From a virus (taxonomy: Duplodnaviria; Caudoviricetes), in the IMG/VR virus record IMGVR_UViG_3300035208_008180: a stretch of 64,000 nucleotides of DNA. One strand, written 5' to 3'. Below the pieces are notes generated by a model. That model was not told the DNA's origin. It saw nothing but the letters and a program-made list of their open reading frames with translations, and did no database searches. Positions 6,490-50,379 of this stretch are shown in pieces; positions within the stretch are counted from its first letter, which is position 1; each line of letters begins with the position of its first letter. Made by a program: the position numbers and the translations under genes.

Positions 6490-6527
6490 AAAAAAACCCG
6501 GACTCAAGTTTCCTTGATCCGGGTTTT
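6490..6527 (-). terminator. attenuator A intrinsic terminator
   Basis: AAAACCCGGATCAAG-GAAA-CTTGAGTCCGGG followed by T7. Confidence 0.85.
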
Positions 6528-6577
6528 GATTTTCTTCCGGCTCAAGGTTTTGCCCCTGAGCCTTGTCTAGCTCAGGG

Positions 6578-6682
6578 TCAAATGGCGGTATTATCTTCGA
6601 CTTCTGGACGTACCGCCACTGTGGGTATTGTTGTACCCTCAGGTGCCGGTCGTCTTGTTGTTCCGAAGAAATTACTCATCAT
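6578..6682 (-). CDS. leader peptide A (MMSNFFGTTRRPAPEGTTIPTVAVRPEVEDNTAI)
   Basis: 34-aa ORF whose stop abuts the first attenuator helix; composition matches downstream tRNAs. Confidence 0.75.
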   Translation of the reverse strand: MMSNFFGTTRRPAPEGTTIPTVAVRPEVEDNTAI

Positions 6683-6970: not shown

Positions 6971-7000
6971 ATTATACTTCAGATTTCGCCGTTGTAAACC
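6971..7000 (-). promoter_or_regulatory. conserved sigma70-type phage promoter GTTTACA-N16-TATAAT
   Basis: GGTTTACAACGGCGAAATCTGAAGTATAAT; motif recurs at least 12 times in the window. Confidence 0.8.
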
Positions 7001-7276: not shown

Positions 7277-7305
7277 ATTATACTTCAGTGCCTGGATTTG
7301 TAAAG
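7277..7305 (-). promoter_or_regulatory. conserved phage promoter
   Basis: CTTTACAAATCCAGGCACTGAAGTATAAT. Confidence 0.75.
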
Positions 7306-19154: not shown

Positions 19155-21149
19155 TTATCCTACTCCCCACAAAGCAAGGTCTGCTTCACTCGGCATACGC
19201 CAATCTCCCCGAGGGCTCAAGCTCACCGTTCCAACCTTGGGACCATCGGGTACACAATTTCGTTTGAATTGATTGTGGAAAAATCGCTTCAAAAATGTGC
19301 GAAGTGTGTTTTTGATAAACTCTGGCGAGTAATCCACATCAAACTTGCACTGATTTGCTAAATACAAAATCTTTTCTGGACTAAAGCCATTTCGCACAAA
19401 ATGATAGAGAAAGAAATCGTGCAATTCATATGGACCCAGGAAGTCCTCACTCGACTGTACCTCTCCGTTCGGTCCAACGGGAAGCAACTCAGGCGAAATA
19501 ACAGTGTTGACAATATCCATCAAAACTTCGGCTACGCTTCCGGGGATAGCAATATCACCTTTGGAATACCGATTCCTGGCAATCCATCCCACCAAAAATT
19601 TTACCAAAGTCTTTGGGACACCACAGTTTACATTATAGCTGGACATGTGATCGCCGTTATATGTGCTCCAGCCTAGAGCCATTTCGGACAAATCACCAGT
19701 GCCCAGAACAAATCCACGGGAGAACAATTCCAGTGTCCGCACTCGGGCTTGAATGTTTTCAAACTTCAAGTCTTTGCTGTTGGGTGGTATTTCTTGGAGT
19801 AATTCTTGAAATTCATCCACAGCTTCAGGGAAAAGCAACAAATGGTCAACATCAATGTCAAAGGGTTTGTAATTTTGGTCCTTGAAAATATTCAAGCAAG
19901 TTTTCCGAATGTCGATGGTTTCACAAGGCACATCTAGTAGTTTTGCCAATCGTTTTGCATTATTTAGCGTTTTGTCGGTAGTGCCAAAACCGGGCATAGT
20001 AATAGCTCGTACATCAACCCCAGCAGCCTTGGCAACCAGCAAAGCCAATGTGGAATCCAAACCACCGGACAGCCCAAGATACATCGGGTGTCCACACATC
20101 TGATCCCATCGTTTCTGCAAGCCCAGAACCTGAATCTTGAAAATTGTTTCACAACGATCATTCAATTGAGCATTGTCGGCGGGGACAAAGGGATGAGCAT
20201 CAACGTGCCGCTTCAATGGACGACTATCACTTGAGTCACGTAAATTAAAATCAATAAAGCGATAGGTCTGGTCGGGTTCCAAAGTGGCAAAACTGATGGT
20301 CTGTCGTCGCTCGTTCTGCAACTTCTCAACATCAACATCAGTAATGATAGAAGCGTGGGGCTCCAATCGCACCCGTTCCAAAATCGATCCATTTTCCGCA
20401 ATGATGCAGTCACCGGCCATCACAATATCACTGGTGGATTCTGTGGGACTGGCACAAGCGTAAATATAAGCGGCAATACAACGTCCCGACTGGGCTTGCA
20501 CAACCTGATGGGCTCGATAATCACCCTTGCCCACCACTTCATTGCTGGCAGACAGATTGAGCAGAATGTTCGCCCCAGCAATTGCTTGATGAGAAGATGG
20601 AGGAATAGGCATCCAACCATCTTCACATATCTCGACTCCTACAACCACTTCCCCAGCACGGAATAAAAGGTCGGTGCCAAATCGAGTATTTGGCATATAT
20701 TGTCGTCCCTCACAATACCTTGGGAAAGGAATGAGGGTTGAAATATTTTTTGCAGCTTTGAACCAACGGGATTCATAAAACTCTTTGTAATTGGGAATGT
20801 GCTGCTTGGGCACAATGCCCAAAATTTGTCCATTGGAAAGAACAGCCGCACAATTATAAAGAGCGTTGCCTACACGGAAAGGAAGACCAACCACAACCAA
20901 TTGGTTTTTTTCGACGCTGTTGGCTATTTCCCACAACCCAGCTTCGGCAGCATCCAGAAGTTTGGTTTGCCCAAACAGATCGCCGCAAGTGTATCCTGTA
21001 ATGGATAATTCGGGGAAAACAATGATTTCGGCAGGATCAGTTTTCGTAAAATAGAATATCGCCTGCTTGATTTCGGCAACATTGGCAGCAACATTGCCTA
21101 CTTTAACTTTAGGGGATACAGCGGCGACTCTGACAAGTCCAAAATTCAT
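19155..21149 (-). CDS. nadE: glutamine-dependent NAD+ synthetase
   Basis: Nitrilase domain (VFPEL, PKQHIPNYKEFYE, EICED) plus synthetase domain (GLSGGLDST, ENIQAR, GTGDLSE, SPEL, FKR..PDGP). Confidence 0.96.
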   Translation of the reverse strand: MNFGLVRVAAVSPKVKVGNVAANVAEIKQAIFYFTKTDPAEIIVFPELSITGYTCGDLFGQTKLLDAAEAGLWEIANSVEKNQLVVVGLPFRVGNALYNCAAVLSNGQILGIVPKQHIPNYKEFYESRWFKAAKNISTLIPFPRYCEGRQYMPNTRFGTDLLFRAGEVVVGVEICEDGWMPIPPSSHQAIAGANILLNLSASNEVVGKGDYRAHQVVQAQSGRCIAAYIYACASPTESTSDIVMAGDCIIAENGSILERVRLEPHASIITDVDVEKLQNERRQTISFATLEPDQTYRFIDFNLRDSSDSRPLKRHVDAHPFVPADNAQLNDRCETIFKIQVLGLQKRWDQMCGHPMYLGLSGGLDSTLALLVAKAAGVDVRAITMPGFGTTDKTLNNAKRLAKLLDVPCETIDIRKTCLNIFKDQNYKPFDIDVDHLLLFPEAVDEFQELLQEIPPNSKDLKFENIQARVRTLELFSRGFVLGTGDLSEMALGWSTYNGDHMSSYNVNCGVPKTLVKFLVGWIARNRYSKGDIAIPGSVAEVLMDIVNTVISPELLPVGPNGEVQSSEDFLGPYELHDFFLYHFVRNGFSPEKILYLANQCKFDVDYSPEFIKNTLRTFLKRFFHNQFKRNCVPDGPKVGTVSLSPRGDWRMPSEADLALWGVG

Positions 21150-30415: not shown

Positions 30416-31822
30416 CTAATCCTCCGAGGGGCTGTTATCGCCACACATTTTCACAATCTTCGGATTAAAGGTTGCAACAATTTCAACCAAATCCGATTGA
30501 GCCGCCATAACTGTATCAATATCTTTATAGACCCCAGGGCTTTCGTCTGCCGTGGCGTCCAAGACAATGACACCTTGCCGATCCAAGTTACCTTGGACAG
30601 CTTTCCAAACATATTTTTCTTTGGCTTTTTTACGAGACATCAATCGCCCCGCCCCGTGAGAAGCAGAACAAAGACTCGCCGGATTACCTTTGCCCACCAC
30701 AATATAAGCAGGCGTGCCCATCGAACCAGGAATTACACCCAGCATACGATGGCTTGCAGGGGTTGCTCCCTTACGATGCACCACTACCTCGCCTTGATTC
30801 GGATCATGCGTTTCAAGGAAAGCGAAATTGTGATGATTCTCTACATTAAATAAAACTTTGGCTCCCAAATTCTGAGCCATAGCCTTGTGAATCAATTGAT
30901 GATTGGCTTGAGCGAATCGACCCATCAATTGCATTGCGAGCCAATATTCCTGCCCATCATTGGATGCCAAATCCAACCATGCCAGATTTTTCAAATCGTC
31001 ATATTTCTTCGGCAACTTGGATTGAGCAACCCCGTGATACATTTGGCATACTGCTGCCCCCGGTCCCCGAGAACCTGAATGAGTCATAATTGCCACATAC
31101 TCACCAGGGAGCAGCCCAGCAATATCTGCAAGCGATGGCGAATTTTGTATTTGCAGAATGCCGACATCAATAAAATGATTTCCGCTACCCGAAGTTCCTA
31201 GCTGCTTCCAGGCTTTGTCTTTTTGCTGTTTGGTGACTCTGGTAATTCCCCAATCCTCATCCATAACCGGATGATTTTTGGGCTGATCGAAGACCGCATT
31301 TCCGCCGTCGCCAATACCAAAACGAGTGCTCTTGGCAATCGCTTCCCTGTACAAATTAAATTTCTTTTCCAAGGAATTGACTGGCATATCTAGGATTGAC
31401 AAGCTCATACGGCAAGCAATATCGACGCCGACCGCATTCGGACATACGGCTCCTTGCAAAGCCAAAACCCCACCAATGGGCAGTCCGTAACCAACATGAC
31501 AATCTGGCATAACGGCGGCAGTAACCGCCATCGGCAATGAACAAGCTTGCTGCATTTGTCCGTCACAACCCTCTTCCAACGACCCCCATACCTTGTAGGG
31601 GATAGCAGCAGATCGAACAAACTGTTGCTCTTGAATTAGAAGATTGGCTAAATCTCCGAAGTGTTTATCTCCGACATATTCCTGAGGGTTGGTGAAGAAA
31701 GTCTTCATGATAGCCTTGATATTGCGATCATCGCCGCCCTCTCGGGCTACACGAATAGCATCGACCGCAAGACGGGCACAATCCTCAGGACATCCAAGTT
31801 TAACAAGCTGTTTGCCGTTCAT
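30416..31822 (-). CDS. rtcB: RNA 3'-phosphate/5'-OH ligase RtcB
   Basis: MPDCHVGYGLPIGG, VGVDIAC, GTSGSGNHF, HSGSRG, HHNFA, HRKGAT, PGSMG, SHGAGR, DESPGVYK. Confidence 0.96.
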   Translation of the reverse strand: MNGKQLVKLGCPEDCARLAVDAIRVAREGGDDRNIKAIMKTFFTNPQEYVGDKHFGDLANLLIQEQQFVRSAAIPYKVWGSLEEGCDGQMQQACSLPMAVTAAVMPDCHVGYGLPIGGVLALQGAVCPNAVGVDIACRMSLSILDMPVNSLEKKFNLYREAIAKSTRFGIGDGGNAVFDQPKNHPVMDEDWGITRVTKQQKDKAWKQLGTSGSGNHFIDVGILQIQNSPSLADIAGLLPGEYVAIMTHSGSRGPGAAVCQMYHGVAQSKLPKKYDDLKNLAWLDLASNDGQEYWLAMQLMGRFAQANHQLIHKAMAQNLGAKVLFNVENHHNFAFLETHDPNQGEVVVHRKGATPASHRMLGVIPGSMGTPAYIVVGKGNPASLCSASHGAGRLMSRKKAKEKYVWKAVQGNLDRQGVIVLDATADESPGVYKDIDTVMAAQSDLVEIVATFNPKIVKMCGDNSPSED

Positions 31823-38359: not shown

Positions 38360-38611
38360 ATTTCTCCCTGGGCTGCTCCTATTATACTTCAGAAACAGAG
38401 GTTGTAAACTCTTTTCGTTTAAACCAATAAAAACCCCTGTGTTTTACCCAGCCGCCTACGGAAATGTAGAAGAAATACTTCCACAACATCGCAAGCCACC
38501 CAACCCCATAAATATAGGCAACCCACTCAGAATGGTTGCTGAACATCAACAACAATGGCAGAATGATGAGAATAGTTAAAACAATCACAATCTGTAGCGT
38601 TGTTTTCATAG

Positions 38612-38683
38612 GGTGGCCGACGAGAATCGAACTCGTATACCCGGATTCACAGTCCAGTTCCTAAGCCATTCGGACACGGCCAC
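38612..38683 (-). tRNA. tRNA-His(GTG), no encoded G-1
   Basis: GTGGCCG..CGGCCAC-C; CTGGA-CTGTGAA-TCCGG. Confidence 0.92.
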
Positions 38684-38685
38684 AG

Positions 38686-38758
38686 TGAGACCAGACGGAC
38701 TTGAACCGTCACCTACTTCCTTAAGAGGGAAGAATGCTGCCGCTAACACCTTGGTCCC
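38686..38758 (-). tRNA. tRNA-Lys(CTT)
   Basis: GGGACCA..TGGTCTC-A; CTTCC-CTCTTAA-GGAAG. Confidence 0.9.
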
Positions 38759-38763
38759 AAAAA

Positions 38764-39045
38764 TCATTCAAAATCCACAATCTGACAACGACGATCAGAG
38801 TGATATTTTCCCAACACAACTTCCAACATTTCTTTATCAGAAAGAATTCCCTTGTCCGACAAAGTAGAAACTAAATTGCCGAGCACTTCGGCAAGTCTTT
38901 TGATCCTATCTTCGATTCCATTGTGCCTGTCGTAGAAGTCATCCTTTCCTTCCATGACAAAATGCTCAACAAATTGTTCAACAGAAAATTCCTCAACAAA
39001 TTCACCAGTGCTTGGGTGCGGAGTACCAAATCTTACTGTTTTCAC
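38764..39045 (-). CDS. hypothetical protein
   Basis: 93 aa with GGAGGT RBS. Confidence 0.55.
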   Translation of the reverse strand: MKTVRFGTPHPSTGEFVEEFSVEQFVEHFVMEGKDDFYDRHNGIEDRIKRLAEVLGNLVSTLSDKGILSDKEMLEVVLGKYHSDRRCQIVDFE

Positions 39046-39260
39046 GATTCACCTCCTCCAAATAACGCTTCCAAATCTTCAGCGTCAATCACTCGCTGTC
39101 CATCGCTCAGTTGATAGACTTTCAGCTTCACGCCACCTAAATCCAAAACGCCTCTGTGTGTGGCGAATGGAACTTCACCATCCAATTCTGGCGGTTCGGC
39201 AGGAAGAGACTCCCACTCCACCCCATCCAACAAAATTTGTATTGGAGATTTGGATTCCAT
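39042..39260 (-). CDS. hypothetical protein (resembles N-terminus of P63C/antirepressor-type proteins)
   Basis: GVLDLGG..LKVYQLSDGQRVI; promoter 39270-39299. Confidence 0.45.
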   Translation of the reverse strand: MESKSPIQILLDGVEWESLPAEPPELDGEVPFATHRGVLDLGGVKLKVYQLSDGQRVIDAEDLEALFGGGES

Positions 39261-39880
39261 ATTGCCCTCATTATACTTCAGAAATTGACGTTGTAAACCA
39301 ATTCATTACCACGGCTTTCATTTGATCGCCAAACTCTTCAATAGCTGCCTCAACCTCCCTGAAATCATCCCCTTCCTGCCACAAAACATCAGAACACTCC
39401 ATCATCCCCTTCGGACTAAAATCAAACAAACGCTCAACAACTTCAAGTTTCTGCTCTCTTGTTAGTTGCATCTCATCCTCCACAACCACAAGGACTAAAA
39501 TCCATATTTCGTTCTTTGGATAATTTATCAATACTTCCGTCTTCTGCACATGTTTTACAAATTACCACATGTTCTTGACCATCGTGATATAATCGACAAC
39601 CAACAAATATTCCGCACGACTCACAAGGAAATCCATCTCTGGCTTCGTTGGCTAAATTCCAATTACTCATTTTACATGTCCCCAATTTGCTATAGCAAGT
39701 GATTCTGTCCAGCGTCCAAACAGTGGATGCTCCCAAAACCACTCGTTATTCACCAATGGCGGATTTAATATCCTTTTCCATCCATTGGCCCTCAACTTTG
39801 CACGCCTTTGCCAACTATCTGTCAGCATTTCAGCAACTTCTGTCAGTGCTTTTTCACCAATAGTCATGATTATTCTCCAG

Positions 39881-39953
39881 GGTGACTAACGGGAGTCGAA
39901 CCCGCTAAAACCTGATCCACAGTCAGGCCCCTAACCGTTCGGGATTAGCCACC
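39881..39953 (-). tRNA. tRNA-His(GTG) with G-1
   Basis: G-GTGGCTA..TAGTCAC-C; CCTGA-CTGTGGA-TCAGG. Confidence 0.9.
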
Positions 39954-40174
39954 ATATTTCGTAATCCTAATCGACACCCACTCTGACTCTCCTCTTGGAA
40001 GAATACCAACCTGAAGCACGTTGTCCATTTTCCAATCAACAACGGAATCATCGCAATATAACGAAAATTCCGATATAATGTCCTCAACATACAATCCTAA
40101 ATCTTCCCAAAAAGCTGCTGATTGGAAAGCAATTCTCTGAATTGACAAAAGCAATCGTCTTATTTGTACTCTGG

Positions 40175-40333
40175 TTATATTTTTTCCACATAACAATGCC
40201 AAGTCCATGTCACACCTCCATGATCTAAATCGATGTTATAGCCAGTTTTAGTGATTTTGATTATAACACCATCACCCGCCCGTTTGGGACACAACACCTT
40301 AACCCTATCGCCAATTTCAAGTAATTTTTTCAT
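40175..40333 (-). CDS. KOW/SH3-like small protein, paralog of 4327-4536
   Basis: MKKLLEIGDRVKVLCPKRAGDGVIIKITKTGY..WTWHCYV. Confidence 0.7.
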   Translation of the reverse strand: MKKLLEIGDRVKVLCPKRAGDGVIIKITKTGYNIDLDHGGVTWTWHCYVEKI

Positions 40334-40336
40334 AAG

Positions 40337-40407
40337 CAGGAGTGCTAGGATTCGGACCAAGATCGACGGTTTTGGAGACCGTTATGCTACCATTGCACCA
40401 CACTCCT
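40337..40407 (-). tRNA. tRNA-Trp(CCA)
   Basis: AGGAGTG..CACTCCT-G; ACGGT-CTCCAAA-ACCGT. Confidence 0.92.
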
Positions 40408-40413
40408 TCGCAG

Positions 40414-40488
40414 CAGCACCGCCAGGACTCGAACCCGGATCGCCTCGATTTGGAATCGAGTGCCCTAAGCCATTTGGACCACGGTGCT
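40414..40488 (-). tRNA. tRNA-Trp(CCA)
   Basis: AGCACCG..CGGTGCT-G; CTCGA-TTCCAAA-TCGAG. Confidence 0.92.
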
Positions 40489-40565
40489 GTATTTGAATGC
40501 TGTGGGTCGTGTGGGCGTGGCATTGCTAGGCAACGGCGTTTCCTCGGAACACCACAGCATTCAAG

Positions 40566-40644
40566 AGTCGGCAGGCGGAATCGAACCACTTAACATCTGA
40601 TTTGCAATCAGACCCCCAGCCTTCGGAGATTAGTTTCTGCCGAC
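40566..40644 (-). tRNA. tRNA-Cys(GCA), atypical acceptor-D linker
   Basis: GTCGGCAG..CTGCCGAC-T; TCTGA-TTGCAAA-TCAGA; about 8 extra nt before D-arm. Confidence 0.8.
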
Positions 40645-40651
40645 AATTCAG

Positions 40652-40728
40652 TGGAGCTAGAGGGAGTCGCACCCTCAGTTACCAACGTACCCATTGTAGG
40701 TTTTACGTTAGACTCGCTTTGTAGCCCC
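40652..40728 (-). ncRNA. mini tmRNA-like RNA (tRNA-like domain only, 77 nt)
   Basis: GGGGCTA..TAGCTCC-A with G3.U70; no D-stem; helix CTAACGTA/TACGTTGG closed by a 14-nt loop; T-arm GAGGG-TGCGACT-CCCTC. Confidence 0.72.
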
Positions 40729-40956
40729 TTATCTTTTTGGACCTTGCCAATCATCCCTGTATTTATATGTAAATTCAGCATCAATTGGCGTGTTCAATCC
40801 TTCCTCTCGCAACATTTCCTCAAGAGCATCAGCCACTTCATCATAAACATCACAACGCTCTTGTTCTACGGCCCAAGTCCATGTGCTGCCGGTAGGCGTA
40901 TGACTTGCTTTTTCCCTTAATTGAGCAATATATGCTCTAATCTTTTCCGACTTCAT
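40729..40956 (-). CDS. hypothetical protein
   Basis: 75-aa ORF inside array B. Confidence 0.5.
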   Translation of the reverse strand: MKSEKIRAYIAQLREKASHTPTGSTWTWAVEQERCDVYDEVADALEEMLREEGLNTPIDAEFTYKYRDDWQGPKR

Positions 40957-41155
40957 CTTTCTTTCCCTTTTTCTTCTTTTCTTTTGGTGCTGATTTCAAA
41001 CTTTCAATCAAAACTTTTACCTCAGCATTTTCCGCAAGTTTAGTTATCAACTCATTCAATCCATGAATCTCCAAACCTTGCCTTGTCGTTTGTTTCACAA
41101 GGTCTTGTATTACACCCTGTGGATCAGTTTGACAGCGTTCTTCAAAGGTTATCAT
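40937..41155 (-). CDS. hypothetical protein
   Basis: 72-aa ORF with GAGGT RBS. Confidence 0.5.
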   Translation of the reverse strand: MITFEERCQTDPQGVIQDLVKQTTRQGLEIHGLNELITKLAENAEVKVLIESLKSAPKEKKKKGKKDEVGKD

Positions 41156-41524
41156 TTTACCCTCTCACAACATCATGGATTTTTGACGGAGCTTGAACAA
41201 CATCTATGATTTCAAAACCAGGAGGCATATATTTTTGTGCCTCATCCCAAGCTTCGCTCACACAAGCGGCGGCTACACTGATCTTTGGTGTCTTAACCTT
41301 TTCCTTGATGTTTTTCTTGAACTTTACAAGATATTGCATGTTTCATCCTTTGCATCAAAATTTACACAATCACATTCCCAGCAGCAGCCTTCTTCGTCAT
41401 GTGCTTCTGAAAGATGCCCACAGGAACATATCATTTTCTTATATCGACTGCAAGAGGGGTCGTGACCACCTCTCAAATCCCTTTCGCATTCGCTACATTC
41501 GATGCTCATATCATTCTCCTTTAG

Positions 41525-41595
41525 CTGCCCCGTAAGGAATCGAACCTTATCTTTCTCGTTCAGAGCGAGACGTGCGGCCACTACACCACGGGGCA
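41525..41595 (-). tRNA. tRNA-Gln(CTG)
   Basis: TGCCCCG..CGGGGCA-G; TCTCG-CTCTGAA-CGAGA. Confidence 0.94.
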
Positions 41596-41601
41596 AAATA
41601 G

Positions 41602-41673
41602 CTGGGCTGGAAGGATTCGAACCTTCACGAACAGATTCAAAGTCTGTCAGGCTAACCGTTACCTCACAGCCCA
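41602..41673 (-). tRNA. tRNA-Gln(TTG)
   Basis: TGGGCTG..CAGCCCA-G; ACAGA-CTTTGAA-TCTGT. Confidence 0.94.
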
Positions 41674-41781
41674 AAAATTTGGTAAATATTTCGGTGTTCC
41701 ACAGCTTAAACTGCCGAGGTTAGAGGCTGTCCATCCTCACCGAGGTTATCGGCCACCGTATCGCCAACTTGGGACATTTAG

Positions 41782-41866
41782 CAGGGGCAGAAGGAATTGA
41801 ACCTCCGAGTGCTTTCGCATGCAGCTTCAAAGACTGCCGGGGTCTGCCAACAACCCCAATACCCCC
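41782..41866 (-). tRNA. atypical tRNA with TTG (Gln) anticodon, 6-bp D-stem and variable arm
   Basis: GGGGGTA..TGCCCCT-G; GGGGTT/GACCCC; GCAGT-CTTTGAA-GCTGC; TGC-GAAA-GCA; GGAGG-TTCAATT-CCTTC. Confidence 0.78.
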
Positions 41867-41871
41867 ATGTT

Positions 41872-41994
41872 TGCAACCAACTGGAATCGAACCAATATTT
41901 CTCCGGTGTCGGGAACGTTTTGCCTTAGGCCGCTTTTTGCCAACCCTTGTTCTAGAATTGAATTAGTTATTACGACCCCTTAAACTATAGTTGC
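41872..41994 (-). ncRNA. tRNA-like RNA with hairpin insertion in D-loop
   Basis: GCAACTA..TGGTTGC acceptor; D-stem GTTT/AAAC split by about 50-nt hairpin; ATTGG-TTCGATT-CCAGT; degenerate anticodon arm. Confidence 0.6.
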
Positions 41995-41997
41995 AAG

Positions 41998-42070
41998 TGA
42001 GACCGTTGGGATTCGCACCCAAAACCTACGGCTTAAAAGGCCGTTGCTCTACTAATTGAGCTACGATCCC
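41998..42070 (-). tRNA. tRNA-Lys(TTT), A18/G55 elbow
   Basis: GGGATCG..CGGTCTC-A; ACGGC-CTTTTAA-GCCGT; T-loop TGCGAAT. Confidence 0.9.
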
Positions 42071-42160
42071 ATATAAGGAAAAGATTGCCAATCTTTATTA
42101 CAGCAGCACAACCTTTGCAGGAAACCCTGGGAAAAGGATTTTATGGCCACAAACCTTGAG

Positions 42161-42232
42161 TGGGTCCACTCGGAATCGAACCGAGGTCAAAACATTAAGA
42201 GTGTTCTATTCTAGCCGCTGAACTATGGACCC
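42161..42232 (-). tRNA. tRNA-Lys(CTT)
   Basis: GGGTCCA..TGGACCC-A; GAACA-CTCTTAA-TGTTT. Confidence 0.93.
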
Positions 42233-42245
42233 AAAGGATAAACCA

Positions 42246-42259
42246 AATTGTCAAAGATC
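42246..42259 (-). promoter_or_regulatory. boxA-like antitermination motif GATCTTTGACAATT
   Basis: Identical to 6088-6101. Confidence 0.6.
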
Positions 42260-42264
42260 ACAAG

Positions 42265-42335
42265 TGGGTCCACGGGGAATCGAACCCCGATAAACTGGGT
42301 AAAAGCCAGTTATTCTGCCATTGAATTACGAACCC
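42265..42335 (-). tRNA. tRNA-Lys(TTT)
   Basis: GGGTTCG..TGGACCC-A; ACTGG-CTTTTAC-CCAGT. Confidence 0.92.
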
Positions 42336-42985
42336 TACAACCACTCTTCATTCACAAAACCACAATATTCTTGAATTGCTCCATAAATGTGTTGCACCAT
42401 ATGAGTGTCGCACACCCTTAAAGAACAAACTCCAAACTTATGCTTATTCTTTTTATACCCGCCACCTTCTCCCTCTTTGAAAACTCCCTTTCGCAAACTG
42501 CTATGGTCTAATTTCAAAATTCCAAGCCAATAATCTTCAATCTCTTTTTTTGATAGACCATTGTTTAAATAACAATTGATGCATATTGTATACTTTTGTT
42601 TTGGGAAGTAGGTATCCACAAATTTTTTAAATGCACAAATGACATTCGCATCCGTATTCGCCAAGCTTGCCACATTTCTACTTTTTGTTCCTTCTGCCCA
42701 ATACAGCGTACAACCCAACAAATGCTGCAACTCTCCCTTTTTCGCCTGCTCCCTCCCCTCTTGCTGATATTGTTTCCTAATTGCCAAATATTTTTTTCTT
42801 GTTCCTTCTTTGCCAGCAAACCCTATTCTTCCATCTAAATTCTTGCGTTTCGTTTGCGACATTTTTATGGGGCGTGTCCATACACTTGCTGTTGATTTAG
42901 ACACACCCAACAAATTCACTATTTCACCAAGCGACTTACCTTCTTTCCTCAATTGTTTGGCTTTTTCTTTTAACTCTTTTTTCAT
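42335..42985 (-). CDS. HTH plus LAGLIDADG-like putative homing endonuclease
   Basis: N-terminal HTH (KSLGEIVNLLGVSKSTASVW); GCTLYWAEGTK..LANTD; stop abuts tRNA-Lys. Confidence 0.65.
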   Translation of the reverse strand: MKKELKEKAKQLRKEGKSLGEIVNLLGVSKSTASVWTRPIKMSQTKRKNLDGRIGFAGKEGTRKKYLAIRKQYQQEGREQAKKGELQHLLGCTLYWAEGTKSRNVASLANTDANVICAFKKFVDTYFPKQKYTICINCYLNNGLSKKEIEDYWLGILKLDHSSLRKGVFKEGEGGGYKKNKHKFGVCSLRVCDTHMVQHIYGAIQEYCGFVNEEWL

Positions 42986-43040
42986 AATAGAACCTTGCCT
43001 TTCTACCTATATATAATAGCAAAGTTCTATTTTTTTCAAG

Positions 43041-43114
43041 TCGTGGCTTTGAGAGTCGAACTCAACACGGAATCCTTATCAGGGATTCCAGGGCAAACCG
43101 GCCCGTCAGCCACG
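43041..43114 (-). tRNA. tRNA-Ile(GAT), atypical 7-bp anticodon stem
   Basis: CGTGGCT..AGCCACG-A; GGAATCC-CTGATAA-GGATTCC; TTGAG-TTCGACT-CTCAA. Confidence 0.8.
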
Positions 43115-43119
43115 TATTT

Positions 43120-43689
43120 TCAATTCAAACTCGGATCGCACTTTGGAAACATATCAAAGAACGAACTTTTCCTTTCTTTCAATGGTTTTGATTCATACTT
43201 ATACTTTTCATCAAGAGACCCCAGTCCCCTGGGATAACCCTCCAAAACTGTCAAACAACCTACAGCATCGCCCCAGGTCCAGTTGTTGGCAAGAGACTCT
43301 TTTGCAAACTCTGCCATGTAAGCTCTTGCTCTTGGAACCAAGCCATCATCCATCTTGTCGTTATACAAATCTTTTGCATAACTTAGAAGCCTGATAGCTT
43401 CCATAAGCACCAACAAATAACTTTTTTTTCCAAAATCCAATGGCACACCCAGAAGCATGTTACCTTCTGTTGCCACAACGCAAACAAAGGAAAAATCACC
43501 CAAAGCCACAGGAGTCACACCTGAAAGCATCAATTTTGAACTAAATTGTGACAATTCCTTCAAAGCATCGAGTGGTATAGTATTAAATTTATCAAACAAA
43601 TGTTGAAGCAACTTCATTACCCTCCGTCCTTGCAAAGCAACAGGATCATCGGGTGGCAAATTATCAATCCTTGGAATTGTGTCCATCAT
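43120..43689 (-). CDS. hypothetical protein, first ORF after attenuator B
   Basis: Start MMDTIP after AGGAG; the longer ORF overlaps the attenuator. Confidence 0.55.
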   Translation of the reverse strand: MMDTIPRIDNLPPDDPVALQGRRVMKLLQHLFDKFNTIPLDALKELSQFSSKLMLSGVTPVALGDFSFVCVVATEGNMLLGVPLDFGKKSYLLVLMEAIRLLSYAKDLYNDKMDDGLVPRARAYMAEFAKESLANNWTWGDAVGCLTVLEGYPRGLGSLDEKYKYESKPLKERKSSFFDMFPKCDPSLN

Positions 43690-43707
43690 AATGCTCCTAA
43701 AGCCAAT

Positions 43708-43748
43708 AAAAAAAGCCCTGTCCAGTTTTTTACCTGAACGGGGCTTTT
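43708..43748 (-). terminator. attenuator B intrinsic terminator
   Basis: AAAAGCCCCGTTCAG-GTAAAAAA-CTGGACAGGGC followed by T7. Confidence 0.82.
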
Positions 43749-43793
43749 CAATACCAACCCGGCTCAGGCATTTGTCCTGAGCCACGGTGCAAC

Positions 43794-43862
43794 TCAGAAC
43801 AGATCGCCAGTAATGCAGCAATGCTGCCACTTTTGTTTCTGTTGTTTTTGTTGCTTCGACAT
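43794..43862 (-). CDS. leader peptide B (MSKQQKQQKQKWQHCCITGDLF)
   Basis: 22-aa ORF with AAGGA RBS, below the ORF-track cutoff; stop lies inside the first attenuator helix. Confidence 0.78.
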   Translation of the reverse strand: MSKQQKQQKQKWQHCCITGDLF

Positions 43863-43879
43863 TATTCTTTTTCCTTCAG

Positions 43880-43953
43880 TGGCGGGAGTAGGATTTGAAC
43901 CTACGGCCTCAAGGTTATGAGCCTTGCGAGCTACCAGACTGCTCCACCCCGCA
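43880..43953 (-). tRNA. initiator-type tRNA-fMet(CAT)
   Basis: TGCGGGGTGGAGCAGTCTGGTAGCTCG; 1:72 mismatch; CAAGG-CTCATAA-CCTTG. Confidence 0.92.
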
Positions 43954-43973
43954 TCATGTTTTCAAAAATTAAG

Positions 43974-44046
43974 TGGCAGGGGCGGGGGATGATCCCGCTT
44001 TCATTTGGTTATGAGCCAAATAAGATAACCGTACCTACCCCCTGCG
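43974..44046 (-). tRNA. atypical tRNA-Met(CAT)
   Basis: CGCAGGG..CCCTGCC-A (C1:C72); TTTGG-CTCATAA-CCAAA; T-loop ATCATCC. Confidence 0.75.
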
Positions 44047-44063
44047 TCATGTTCATATATATG

Positions 44064-44091
44064 AGTATAGCTTGAAATTTTTTTCTGTCAA
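44064..44091 (-). promoter_or_regulatory. sigma70 promoter at the head of tRNA array B
   Basis: TTGACA-N16-TATACT. Confidence 0.7.
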
Positions 44092-44233
44092 TCCCTATTT
44101 TTCGGATTTTTTTCGGCGTAAACCAAAAATGGCTCCGAGTCGCCTTGCCACTATTCCCGCTCCAATGGAGACATTAGCTTATCGGGGTTTGCTGTCGCCG
44201 TTTCTCGGAGGTTGCCAGCTTGCTCTTCCATTA

Positions 44234-45805: not shown

Positions 45806-45835
45806 ATTATACTCCAGAAACTTGCCTTGTAAACC
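45806..45835 (-). promoter_or_regulatory. conserved phage promoter
   Basis: GGTTTACAAGGCAAGTTTCTGGAGTATAAT. Confidence 0.78.
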
Positions 45836-47476: not shown

Positions 47477-48181
47477 TCAGCCCTGCAATGCAATACCAAA
47501 CTTCTCTCGCATCAACAGCTTTGCTTTTTGAAGCAATTGATGGATATACGGACTTGATACCCCCAATTGCTTGGCAATCTCTTTCAGTGTTTTTCTTTCA
47601 ATATAATGTTCGTGAAGAATTTGTTTTGCTCTTGTTGTAAAAAATGTATCGCCAGAATGCATGGTGAACAATTCATCTACCAAGTCTGCGTTTGAAGACC
47701 GTGGATCAACAATTTGCATTTCAGTGAAGTCTACCAACTCTTCATGATATTTTATTTTTCTTTGTTTATATCCATCAAGAATGGCATTTCGCATACAGCG
47801 AATAGCATAACTAGACCATGTGCATTCATGTTGCTGGGCTAAGTCTGGTGTCCAGCTTTCCACGGCTCTCCACAAGCCCATCAAAGCATCGGAATATTCT
47901 TCGCTATTTTCTACATCTTCATTAGACTTGAGAAAAGTTAAAGCCGAAGAGCGAGCCAGCTTCAAATTGGCCTCGACGGTTGGCTTGACGAACCTTAGCT
48001 CTTGTGTGCTTTGGTCGTCTTGCAGTCCCGATGTAGAAATAGGGGACGGAAGAGTGAACGATTTTTTCTTCAAAGCAATTGTCATAAAGCCCTCGCAGAC
48101 CAAAGTGTTTTTGCACTTCGGACCAACTTGCTTACACGACAAGCACTTCGGACCAACCTGCGTTGATGATTTAATAGACAT
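47477..48181 (-). CDS. RNA polymerase sigma-70 family factor (start may be 48085)
   Basis: Region 2 (EANLKL..DALMGLWRAVESW..SSYAIRCMRNAILD) and region 4 (TLKEIAKQLGVS). Confidence 0.82.
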   Translation of the reverse strand: MSIKSSTQVGPKCLSCKQVGPKCKNTLVCEGFMTIALKKKSFTLPSPISTSGLQDDQSTQELRFVKPTVEANLKLARSSALTFLKSNEDVENSEEYSDALMGLWRAVESWTPDLAQQHECTWSSYAIRCMRNAILDGYKQRKIKYHEELVDFTEMQIVDPRSSNADLVDELFTMHSGDTFFTTRAKQILHEHYIERKTLKEIAKQLGVSSPYIHQLLQKAKLLMREKFGIALQG

Positions 48182-50379
48182 TACAACAAATTCTTCAAGG
48201 TGTCAACATCAATGATGGGAATTCCTAACGCCGTTGCCTCAGCCGACTTATCACCACTACCATCTCCAGCCACCAGATATTTTACTTTTTTGGATACACT
48301 TCCAGCACACTTGCCACCCAATTCTTCGATCTTTGCTTTCCAGAATGTTTTACCTTGCGGCAAACTACCACTGAGGCAGAAGGTCACGCCTGTTAGTTTT
48401 CCGATTTTGGGAAGTTGCAAGTCAAAATGTTGCAGCAGCCGGTTGATTTCTTGCGAATGCAATTGCAGGTAAGAATAAATGATTTCGGCTGTCTTTTTAC
48501 CAACCCCATCCGTGCCCTCAAGTTCATTAACGCTAGCTGCCTGTATCTTGTCAATACCCCGAAAGTGAGAAATTAAAGATTTTCCCGAATCCTCCCCTGC
48601 TGTGGGAATACCCAGGGCAGCAAAGAACTTCCAGGCATCCACCTTCTTGGGGGTTTTAATTGCTGCTGTTATTTGTGTCGCAAGCTCTTTATCATCAATA
48701 TGTTCGGGATCGTGAATCATATGAATGGCAGCCACGGTCAACAGTGATTCTCGCTCCGAAAGCCCTGCCGCCATGCAATCTGCGGCGGAAAGAGAATAAA
48801 AATCGGCTCTGGTGGTAATTTTACCACTGGACATGAGCATTTCAACAGTTGCCTCTCCCAATCCCAGGCAACCCAAGACCTTAAACCAATGACAATAATT
48901 GCTCAATTGCTTCGCTGGACAGTCGGAATTCTCACATCGAAGTTCCCACATTTCCTCCCTATTACCTTTGGCGGGGGTGTGAATACTGGCCGTAGGCTTG
49001 CCACACGATGGGCAAGTTTTGGGATAGGTTGGGTCACACGAATTAGATTTGACACCCACCACCTTGGGGATAATGTTCCCGGCTTTTTGGACAAGTATTT
49101 CTGTGCCCAGGCCAATTTTCTTACGAATCATAAATCCGAGATTATGGAGCGTGGCACGGGCTACATTCGTGTCGGCCAAGCGAATGGGAGCAAAAATAGC
49201 AACGGGTTTAATGACCCCAGTGCGACCCACATTCCACTCAATGGCTTTAATGATTGCAGGCTCACGTTCCTCAGCGAATTTCCAAGCAATCTTGCCCCGT
49301 GGATTACCATCGGGTTTATCACCGTGGGTGCCCAAGTGACTCTGTTCATCCAAGCTTTCTACACCAATCACAATCCCGTCAACCCGATAATCCAGAGAGG
49401 GGACTTCTGCCTCCATCTTTGCCAAATCAAAGAAATTAAAGCTTCTGCTTTGCACAAATCGAATGCATGGCTCATTCGGATGTGCTGAATCGTAGCCCAG
49501 ATTTTTATTGACCCAAATAGCCTTTTCGGTTTCGGTACTGTAAGGAATAGGGGAACTATCATTCCACGTAATCCCATGAGCAATGCAAGTTACCAAATGA
49601 TATTTGGTTTTCTCGGGATCATTGAATTGTCGGATACCACCGACTGCCGCTGATCGTTGGTTAGAAAATTCTTTTTCCCCCTGTTGTCGCTTCCAATCTT
49701 GAACCTTGGGGAAATCGGAAGTCAAAACAATCAATTCACCCCGAATGGCACATGTGATCGGAACTTTGAGCTTTGTGGGAATGCCCTTCACATATTTGGC
49801 TTGCTCTGTGACATCTTCCCCATATTCTCCATCCCGTGGACGCAAACCAGCCGAAACCAATTCCCCCTTCTCATAATAGAATTGAATAGAAACTCCATCC
49901 AATTTCCATTGCTGATAAAAATAGCCACGGGGATAAGTTACGTTGCTGCCCTTGTATTTCTCTCCATCCAGAACATAAAACTTGCCTTCCCGAACCGACT
50001 TGGGGGCTTTCTCTGTGCAATCTGAAATCCACTTCCAAAGTTGTGCTTTTTGGATTTCCAAATCCTCATGGCTTGCTTTGTCGATGGAGGTCAGCAATGG
50101 GACGTGTTTTACCTTCTTTGTGGAAATTACCCGCTTTGAAGCCGTAACAGTTTTGAAGATTTTGGAGTCAGAACGATTAGCCTGGAGGGTGCCCTTGAGC
50201 ATATCGTATTTTGGGTCGGATACGGGGGTTGCAGCATCCAACCCCAAGAGTTTCAACATATCATCCGATGTATCGGCGGGGATTAGGCAATCTTCGCCGT
50301 CATCAAATCGAGTATCCAACTCAGCAATAATGGCTTCCAACTCATCGCACTGACTGGCATTCAATTTCGGGTAATTCAT
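48181..50379 (-). CDS. ligA: NAD-dependent DNA ligase
   Basis: SDPKYD, KLDG, GEDVT, RGEL, DGIVI, AWKF, VGRTG, RATLHN, AGNIIP, C4 Zn finger, HhH, BRCT. Confidence 0.95.
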   Translation of the reverse strand: MNYPKLNASQCDELEAIIAELDTRFDDGEDCLIPADTSDDMLKLLGLDAATPVSDPKYDMLKGTLQANRSDSKIFKTVTASKRVISTKKVKHVPLLTSIDKASHEDLEIQKAQLWKWISDCTEKAPKSVREGKFYVLDGEKYKGSNVTYPRGYFYQQWKLDGVSIQFYYEKGELVSAGLRPRDGEYGEDVTEQAKYVKGIPTKLKVPITCAIRGELIVLTSDFPKVQDWKRQQGEKEFSNQRSAAVGGIRQFNDPEKTKYHLVTCIAHGITWNDSSPIPYSTETEKAIWVNKNLGYDSAHPNEPCIRFVQSRSFNFFDLAKMEAEVPSLDYRVDGIVIGVESLDEQSHLGTHGDKPDGNPRGKIAWKFAEEREPAIIKAIEWNVGRTGVIKPVAIFAPIRLADTNVARATLHNLGFMIRKKIGLGTEILVQKAGNIIPKVVGVKSNSCDPTYPKTCPSCGKPTASIHTPAKGNREEMWELRCENSDCPAKQLSNYCHWFKVLGCLGLGEATVEMLMSSGKITTRADFYSLSAADCMAAGLSERESLLTVAAIHMIHDPEHIDDKELATQITAAIKTPKKVDAWKFFAALGIPTAGEDSGKSLISHFRGIDKIQAASVNELEGTDGVGKKTAEIIYSYLQLHSQEINRLLQHFDLQLPKIGKLTGVTFCLSGSLPQGKTFWKAKIEELGGKCAGSVSKKVKYLVAGDGSGDKSAEATALGIPIIDVDTLKNLL

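Follow-up and report, generated by a model that had tools for sequence, protein, structure and literature searches.

A 22-codon open reading frame (ORF) that precedes an array of 13 tRNA genes, in what is likely a giant phage, probably forms with the RNA behind it a working leader-peptide attenuator that senses how the codons served by the array are being decoded; this function is inferred, as there are no RNA data. The phage probably makes this set of tRNAs only when ribosomes read those codons slowly, a statement that has no experiment behind it. The unit is referred to here as unit B, and two sister units, A and C, are encoded on the same contig. A ribosome-mediated attenuator had been proposed for this locus in an initial annotation, and the proposal has met every sequence-level prediction tested in silico, with translation of the leader and regulated read-through remaining inferences.

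Genomic setting

The window, that is the whole stretch of 64,000 nucleotides that was analysed, corresponds to bases 32001-96000 within a 340,072-bp contig (40.5% G+C), and positions refer to the window unless the contig is named. The contig had been assigned to genome bin G000, probably by mistake, because the other large contigs of that bin are about 70% G+C. Twenty contigs of the bin are below 50% G+C, with a sum of 1.08 Mb, and two of these carry terminase genes; with this much low-GC DNA, terminase contigs included, amid sequences of about 70% G+C, the bin is a mixture of a bacterium and one or more giant phages. It is likely, yet not proven, that the contig is part of a giant phage genome. 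This assignment is based on strong matches of several window proteins to phage protein families (PHROG), on the terminase genes of two other low-GC contigs of the bin, on the tRNA content of the contig (65 genes, every one on the minus strand), and on genes for RtcB RNA ligase (30416-31822), NAD-dependent DNA ligase (48181-50379) and glutamine-dependent NAD synthase (19155-21149), which are all on the minus strand and sit between tRNA arrays. The presence of RtcB in the window fits a tRNA-repair theme. Near-identical DNA is present in groundwater and landfill metagenomes.

Organization of operon B

All elements of operon B are on the minus strand, in the order promoter, two tRNA-Met genes, Shine-Dalgarno element, leader B, terminator hairpin with seven T, a protein gene and 13 tRNA genes. 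The promoter (44064-44091) is sigma-70-like, with 11 of 12 consensus positions and a 16-nt spacer, and is followed by two tRNA-Met(CAT) genes (43879-44045) which, being transcribed ahead of the leader, lie outside attenuator control. A Shine-Dalgarno-like core (43872-43876) is placed 9 nt 5′ of the ATG of leader B, a spacing that is inside the range of this genome’s genes, yet in its upper tail. The leader, located directly 3′ of a tRNA end, is the 22-residue ORF of the initial annotation and was recovered at 43794-43862 (22 codons and a stop) with a peptide identical to the one quoted there; that it is translated is an inference. The first gene beyond the attenuator (43120-43689), between the terminator and the first tRNA, encodes a protein of 189 residues (P0001) that has no Pfam or PHROG family and whose AlphaFold model, at a mean pLDDT of 57, could not support a fold search. 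Neither this gene nor the two tRNA-Met genes between promoter and leader had figured in the first account of the locus.

Codons 3 to 17 of leader B (43812-43856) are the putative regulatory codons, and their composition (four Lys, six Gln, one Trp, one His, two Cys and one Ile) agrees with the earlier count. Behind them stand five spacer codons for other amino acids, just the distance that keeps segment 1 of the attenuator (see below) uncovered when a ribosome stalls at codon 17. The regulatory codons occupy only positions at which a stalled ribosome leaves this segment unmasked.

Correspondence between leader B and its tRNA array

Array B (38611-43114) consists of 13 tRNA genes with interleaved small ORFs. 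According to ARAGORN the tRNAs are Ile-GAT, Lys-TTT (two), Lys-CTT (two), Gln-TTG (two), Gln-CTG, Cys-GCA, Trp (two) and His (two); 11 of the 13 are also above the Rfam tRNA threshold, with Ile-GAT and Cys-GCA being called by ARAGORN only and having somewhat unusual cloverleaves. The list given in the initial annotation is thus exact as to these 13, and its addition that the array holds nothing else is nearly but not strictly right, because a tRNA-like element (Rfam, 33.5 bits) is found at 41872-41994 on the minus strand between tRNA-Lys and tRNA-Gln genes. Its D-loop region contains a 58-nt insertion, the triplet in the place of the anticodon is ACA, and default ARAGORN does not call it.

Every one of the 15 regulatory codons of leader B can be decoded by array B anticodons, and conversely each of the eight anticodon species of the array is polled at least once by the leader. 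Among 300,000 mononucleotide shuffles of the 45 bases, which preserve composition, none reaches 15 of 15, and the other two frames of the same stretch yield only 3 decodable codons of 14 each. When the 2138 ORFs of 18-45 codons that begin with ATG on either strand of the whole 340-kb contig are ranked, leader B comes first for the longest run of residues belonging to the set (15, the next best being 8). The match between leader B and array B is not a product of chance. Part of the leader’s composition could have a cause at the RNA level, since the Lys/Gln run is A/C-rich and of low complexity and the Trp-Gln-His-Cys-Cys stretch overlaps a small palindrome.

Attenuator helices and the predicted switch

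The RNA of attenuator B can be divided into five segments, each able to pair with its neighbours. Segment 1 (43789-43801) includes the stop codon of the leader, as had been claimed, and has two possible partners, segment 2 and, on RNA that carries no ribosome, the 5′ portion of the ORF; segment 2 (43773-43785) has segment 1 or 3 as its partner; segment 3 (43756-43770) pairs with 2 or, as antiterminator, with 4; segment 4 (43731-43748) is the 5′ arm of the terminator and pairs with 3 or 5; and segment 5 (43708-43725) is the 3′ arm of the terminator together with the seven T (43714-43708). The four mutually exclusive helices named in the initial annotation all fold as described, with predicted energies of -15.2 (1:2), -17.6 (2:3), -20.2 (3:4) and -20.1 kcal/mol (4:5), and for each of them none of 200 dinucleotide shuffles folds as well. 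The 4:5 hairpin and its T run (43748-43708) bear out the terminator that had been suggested. Summed over helices, the on state (1:2 and 3:4) amounts to -35.4 kcal/mol and the off state (2:3 and 4:5) to -37.7 kcal/mol, which is nearly equal.

At equilibrium the full-length RNA adopts the terminator state (z = -4.2). The terminator is always preferred in such folds and no switch is visible, and for this reason only the RNA 3′ of the ribosome was folded, ending before the 3′ arm of the terminator; for the same reason, the case for read-through is a kinetic one, as with trp. In these co-transcriptional folds, a ribosome with its A site on the stop codon leads to formation of 2:3 and leaves segment 4 mostly free, and a ribosome with its A site at least five codons upstream of the stop allows 1:2 and 3:4 to form, with segment 4 sequestered. 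In ribosome-free RNA, pairing of segment 1 with the first part of the ORF is predicted, and the terminator forms. The same position-dependent switch is obtained for attenuators A and C. Shuffling of the intervening RNA gave sequences that switch as well in 20 of 1000 cases for A, 26 of 1000 for B and 70 of 1000 for C.

Sister units A and C

Leader ORF A (6578-6682, minus strand) has 34 codons, and 25 of its codons 7-33 are decodable by array A (Gly, Thr, Arg, Pro, Ala, Glu, Val, Asp, Asn and Ile-ATA). It is followed by attenuator A (6490-6577, minus strand), which has the five-segment layout of unit B; the two attenuators align over their whole length (about 97 nt) with the same segment order and, based on this alignment, look like paralogues with rewritten leaders. 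Leader C is located 145 kb past the window, at contig positions 241259-241179. Downstream of leader A, and likewise of leader C, come a terminator with seven T at its end, a single protein gene and a tRNA array.

The core of leader C is made up of Ser, Leu, Tyr and Phe codons plus a single Thr codon, and this lone Thr codon is decoded by the sole Thr tRNA that array C encodes, with anticodon CGT. The gene for this tRNA is missed by default ARAGORN and scores 54 bits with Rfam; relaxed ARAGORN settings gave 44 extra calls, mostly implausible, from which only the Rfam-confirmed Thr-CGT was used.

When the residues of each leader are compared with the amino-acid set of each array, the three-by-three table has 29/33 (A), 15/21 (B) and 17/25 (C) on its diagonal and 2 to 5 in all other cells. 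Among the 2138 small ORFs leader A ranks first and leader C second for their own sets, the ORF above leader C being a dinucleotide repeat, and shuffles that match the decodability of the leader number 5 in 300,000 for A and 0 in 300,000 for C. The anticodon species polled come to 8 of 8 in unit B and to 18 of 21 and 12 of 12 in the other two units. Each of the 20 amino acids is served by the three arrays or the tRNA-Met genes, and the 19 other than Met are split among the three leaders just as they are among the arrays. The peptides of the three leaders have no common sequence, and the match to a tRNA set is all that they have in common. Independent replication is provided by the sister leaders and also by the homologues of leader C that are conserved elsewhere (see below).

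Some further elements were noted around unit A on the minus strand. A perfect 22-bp inverted repeat (6061-6040 and 5943-5922), enclosing about 96 nt, immediately precedes the tRNA with which array A begins. After the promoter at 6998 and ahead of leader A, a stretch (6900-6835) that neither ARAGORN nor Rfam calls resembles the T-arm and acceptor end of a tRNA, a parallel to the tRNA-Met pair ahead of leader B. Further upstream, about 260 nt (7270-7010) between a promoter at 7304 and a T run at about 7005 are GC-richer and apparently non-coding; this region may be a structured RNA, and it has no Rfam match at the gathering threshold.

Promoters and the extent of control

The phage has its own conserved promoter class, with about two dozen copies on the contig, all on the minus strand, each composed of a -35-like hexamer, about 10 variable bases and a fixed block of 12 bases ending in a perfect -10 element. 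Copies in the window are at 45833, 39297, 38408, 33737, 25888, 11844, 8444, 7304 and 6998. Promoters of this class stand in front of leaders A (6971-6998, minus strand) and C, and leader B instead has the plain sigma-70-type promoter described above. A phage-type promoter inside array B (39270-39297, minus strand) is ahead of the last two tRNAs only; no consensus promoter was found from terminator B to the 11th tRNA gene of the array, tRNA-His (39880-39951). The relevance of sigma-70 promoters, like that of transcription-translation coupling, is an assumption, inferred for a phage whose host is not known. Array C also includes the gene for a sigma-70-like protein that carries a long additional region at its C-terminus.

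Past terminator C, a -10-like element, preceded by TG but lacking a -35 element, is located at positions 241113-241105 of the contig (C200; 11114-11106 in L002). The same element occurs in one relative (L004, near 160-170) and is absent from another (L006). It may be a bypass promoter, and on account of it some bypass transcription at unit C cannot be excluded.

Relatives and conservation

For the coding part of leader B no homologue was found by pattern scans, blastn or neighbour-protein searches, and comparative support therefore comes from sister unit C. Against GenBank phages, blastn of locus B matched only a tRNA-Met gene, and tblastn of two neighbouring proteins found nothing; IMG/VR pattern scans with P0001, the sigma factor and a 156-residue neighbour, and a scan of JGI metagenomes with a P0001 alignment, likewise recovered no relative. 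A first scan with degenerate codon patterns for leader B had no matches, and a degenerate pattern for the Trp-x-His-Cys-Cys stretch gave 25, all of them out of frame or without a start and a terminator and hence treated as chance. The attenuator itself is partly covered by a 175-nt contig from a pond metagenome that spans 43727-43804 (78 nt) and has its only differences, a single substitution and an insertion of 4 nt, in the 3:4 loop.

Homologues of P0001 are few and distant and are found in phage-like contigs; the closest (P0025) has 38% identity and a 297-nt gap upstream. Three more distant homologues (on L012, L013 and L014) were rejected as B-type units, having no leader or tRNA-array context. 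One of these, on an unrelated GC-rich contig (L014, 114-1165), is preceded by about 1 kb of non-coding and apparently highly structured sequence that ends in a terminator; no tRNAs were found on this contig.

The protein after leader C, on the other hand, has relatives in ENA and JGI metagenomes, and their contigs carry homologous leaders. These are 26 codons each, stand ahead of Leu/Ser/Tyr/Phe arrays and have the same 14-residue core at the amino-acid level, with synonymous differences only. Differences in their terminator arms are accompanied by corresponding changes in segment 1, and two of the homologues are predicted to switch in the same manner. In one relative the array also includes a tRNA-Thr(CGT), and its leader retains the matching Thr codon. 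Conservation of the leader ORF together with its helices is thus observed for unit C. The contigs of three further neighbours of leader C have suitable upstream gaps, and a degenerate pattern for the leader C core had no match in GTDB genomes or IMG/VR.

Proposed mechanism

Transcription would begin at the promoter at 44091, cross the two tRNA-Met genes and enter the 22-codon leader, where a ribosome is thought to translate closely behind the polymerase (both translation and coupling are inferred). If the 15 Lys, Gln, Trp, His, Cys and Ile codons are decoded quickly, the ribosome would reach the stop codon and mask segment 1, with the result that segment 2 is paired with 3, segment 4 remains available for the 4:5 terminator, and transcription stops at the T7 run. 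Shortage of any of the eight tRNA species would stall the ribosome within codons 3 to 17; the exposed segment 1 could then pair with segment 2, segment 3 would take segment 4, no terminator would form and the polymerase could enter the array. If the leader is not translated, the beginning of the ORF is predicted to take up segment 1, and the terminator would again form. The operon gated in this way would comprise a single protein gene together with the tRNA block. Because its products are the tRNAs being tested, the loop would act as a homeostat of their supply, and units A, B and C would represent three modules of sensor and array that divide among them all amino acids except Met.

What would trigger read-through is also inferred. 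The signal could be demand arising from phage codon usage, loss of host tRNAs, or tRNA-cleaving defences; a trigger by anticodon nucleases is plausible, and there is no test of it.

Alternative explanations

Unit B could be a real attenuator that acts as a general sensor of elongation rate or of amino-acid starvation, placed ahead of a late or stress operon that merely holds tRNAs. Leader-peptide attenuators sense charged tRNA, so that starvation for an amino acid would stall the ribosome too, and operon B includes protein genes as well. Such a sensor would nevertheless have no need of three non-overlapping sets of the code, each matched to its own array, of leaders that poll 8 of 8, 18 of 21 and 12 of 12 anticodon species, or of a Thr codon matched to the sole Thr tRNA of array C, and this reading is regarded as unlikely. 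Even less credence is given to the possibility that the ORF is translated for a purpose other than control of termination, such as shielding from Rho, processing after tRNA-Met or production of a functional peptide, with a terminator that is leaky or constitutive. The position of leader B directly after a tRNA 3′ end and the constant presence of the terminator in equilibrium folds are in keeping with it, but it leaves unexplained why four exclusive helices of similar strength are present with the stop codon in segment 1, and why a position-dependent switch is predicted in three units and two homologues; moreover, the three peptides share only their match to a tRNA set.

The remaining explanation, that a chance frame in an A/C-rich spacer is followed by an ordinary terminator that ends the tRNA-Met unit, with the array being transcribed from an unrecognised promoter, is scarcely tenable. 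The low complexity of the Lys/Gln run and the partly palindromic remainder could be cited in its support, as could the 25 matches of the degenerate Trp-x-His-Cys-Cys pattern in unrelated DNA, which mark this stretch as a common word. A chance frame, however, does not account for the absence of any shuffle in 300,000 that reaches 15 of 15, for the first rank of the ORF among 2138, for the fact that the best-ranking ORFs of the other two sets likewise precede their own arrays, or for the conservation of a sister unit, and an unrecognised promoter is opposed by the lack of a consensus promoter past terminator B as far as the 11th tRNA. An attenuator that responds to the decoding of the array’s own codons remains the preferred interpretation of unit B.

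Relation to known regulatory systems

Enterobacteria have multivalent leader-peptide attenuators, among them those of ilvGMEDA, whose leader contains Ile, Val and Leu codons, and of thr, with Thr and Ile codons. These resemble unit B in having a short leader with codons of several amino acids, in the choice between antiterminator and terminator by ribosome position, and in that stalling leads to read-through and absence of translation to termination. They control biosynthetic enzymes, whereas unit B controls tRNAs; their leaders have runs of one to three amino acids, whereas leader B presents a panel of six amino acids and eight codon types with at least one codon per tRNA species; and they are built from four segments, whereas unit B has five, is phage-encoded and is one of three units that cover all amino acids but Met. 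The pheM leader of Escherichia coli pheST senses one amino acid and controls a synthetase. Like unit B it is part of a leader-peptide attenuator ahead of a gene of the translation apparatus that senses the cognate charged tRNA, but its product is a synthetase, whereas in unit B the product is the sensed tRNA itself and the loop is closed directly. T-box riboswitches bind uncharged tRNA directly and do not require translation; they too tie tRNA status to terminator read-through by way of an antiterminator, yet they sense tRNA by binding, and the sensor of unit B is a putatively translated ORF with its stop codon in segment 1.

Scans with Rfam leader families (Trp, His, Leu, Thr and Phe) gave no match, the window yielding nothing but tRNAs at the gathering threshold. 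With E values up to 1, the region 38500-44150 had tRNA matches and weak antisense matches of an unrelated plastid 5′ UTR family on tRNA genes, and no leader family. The T-box model had no match in the Rfam scans at the same thresholds.

Phage tRNAs have been discussed as a counter to host defences that target tRNAs, which gives a reason for a phage to have tRNAs of its own when those of the host are cleaved (PMC10264068, PMC11555353). These papers appear to concern what phage tRNAs do. No paper on leader-peptide control of phage tRNA genes was found in full-text searches, which do not cover the older subscription literature, and the earlier remark that no such attenuator had been described for a tRNA array stands within that limit. 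What is known is the classical mechanism of leader-peptide attenuation; what is new is the tRNA-gene target, the panel of several codons and the division of the code over three units.

Biological significance

The purpose of tRNA genes in phages has been a matter of debate for decades, and the regulation of these genes has, as far as could be found, remained unaddressed in the literature. If the interpretation is true, the phage gauges the sufficiency of tRNAs directly and expresses its own on demand. The logic of the attenuator would join classical attenuation to current work on tRNA-cleaving defences and the counter-measures of phages. A more far-reaching and tentative proposal, which is given somewhat less than an even chance, is that the three units, as paralogous attenuators that each poll nearly all anticodon species of their own array, together form a three-channel homeostat of tRNA supply that doubles as a counter-defence sensor, in which loss of one species to a host anticodon nuclease or to tRNA shut-off would induce exactly the replacement set and expression would cease after recovery of decoding. 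Leader B would provide a simple reporter assay for the tRNA losses that a phage undergoes, as well as a compact natural part for synthetic biology by which several tRNA species are sensed at once. In uncultured phages the regulated tRNA set would be predictable from the leader alone, and, if this arrangement is general among giant phages, phages would have at their disposal a level of control over the translation apparatus that is widespread and has so far gone undescribed.
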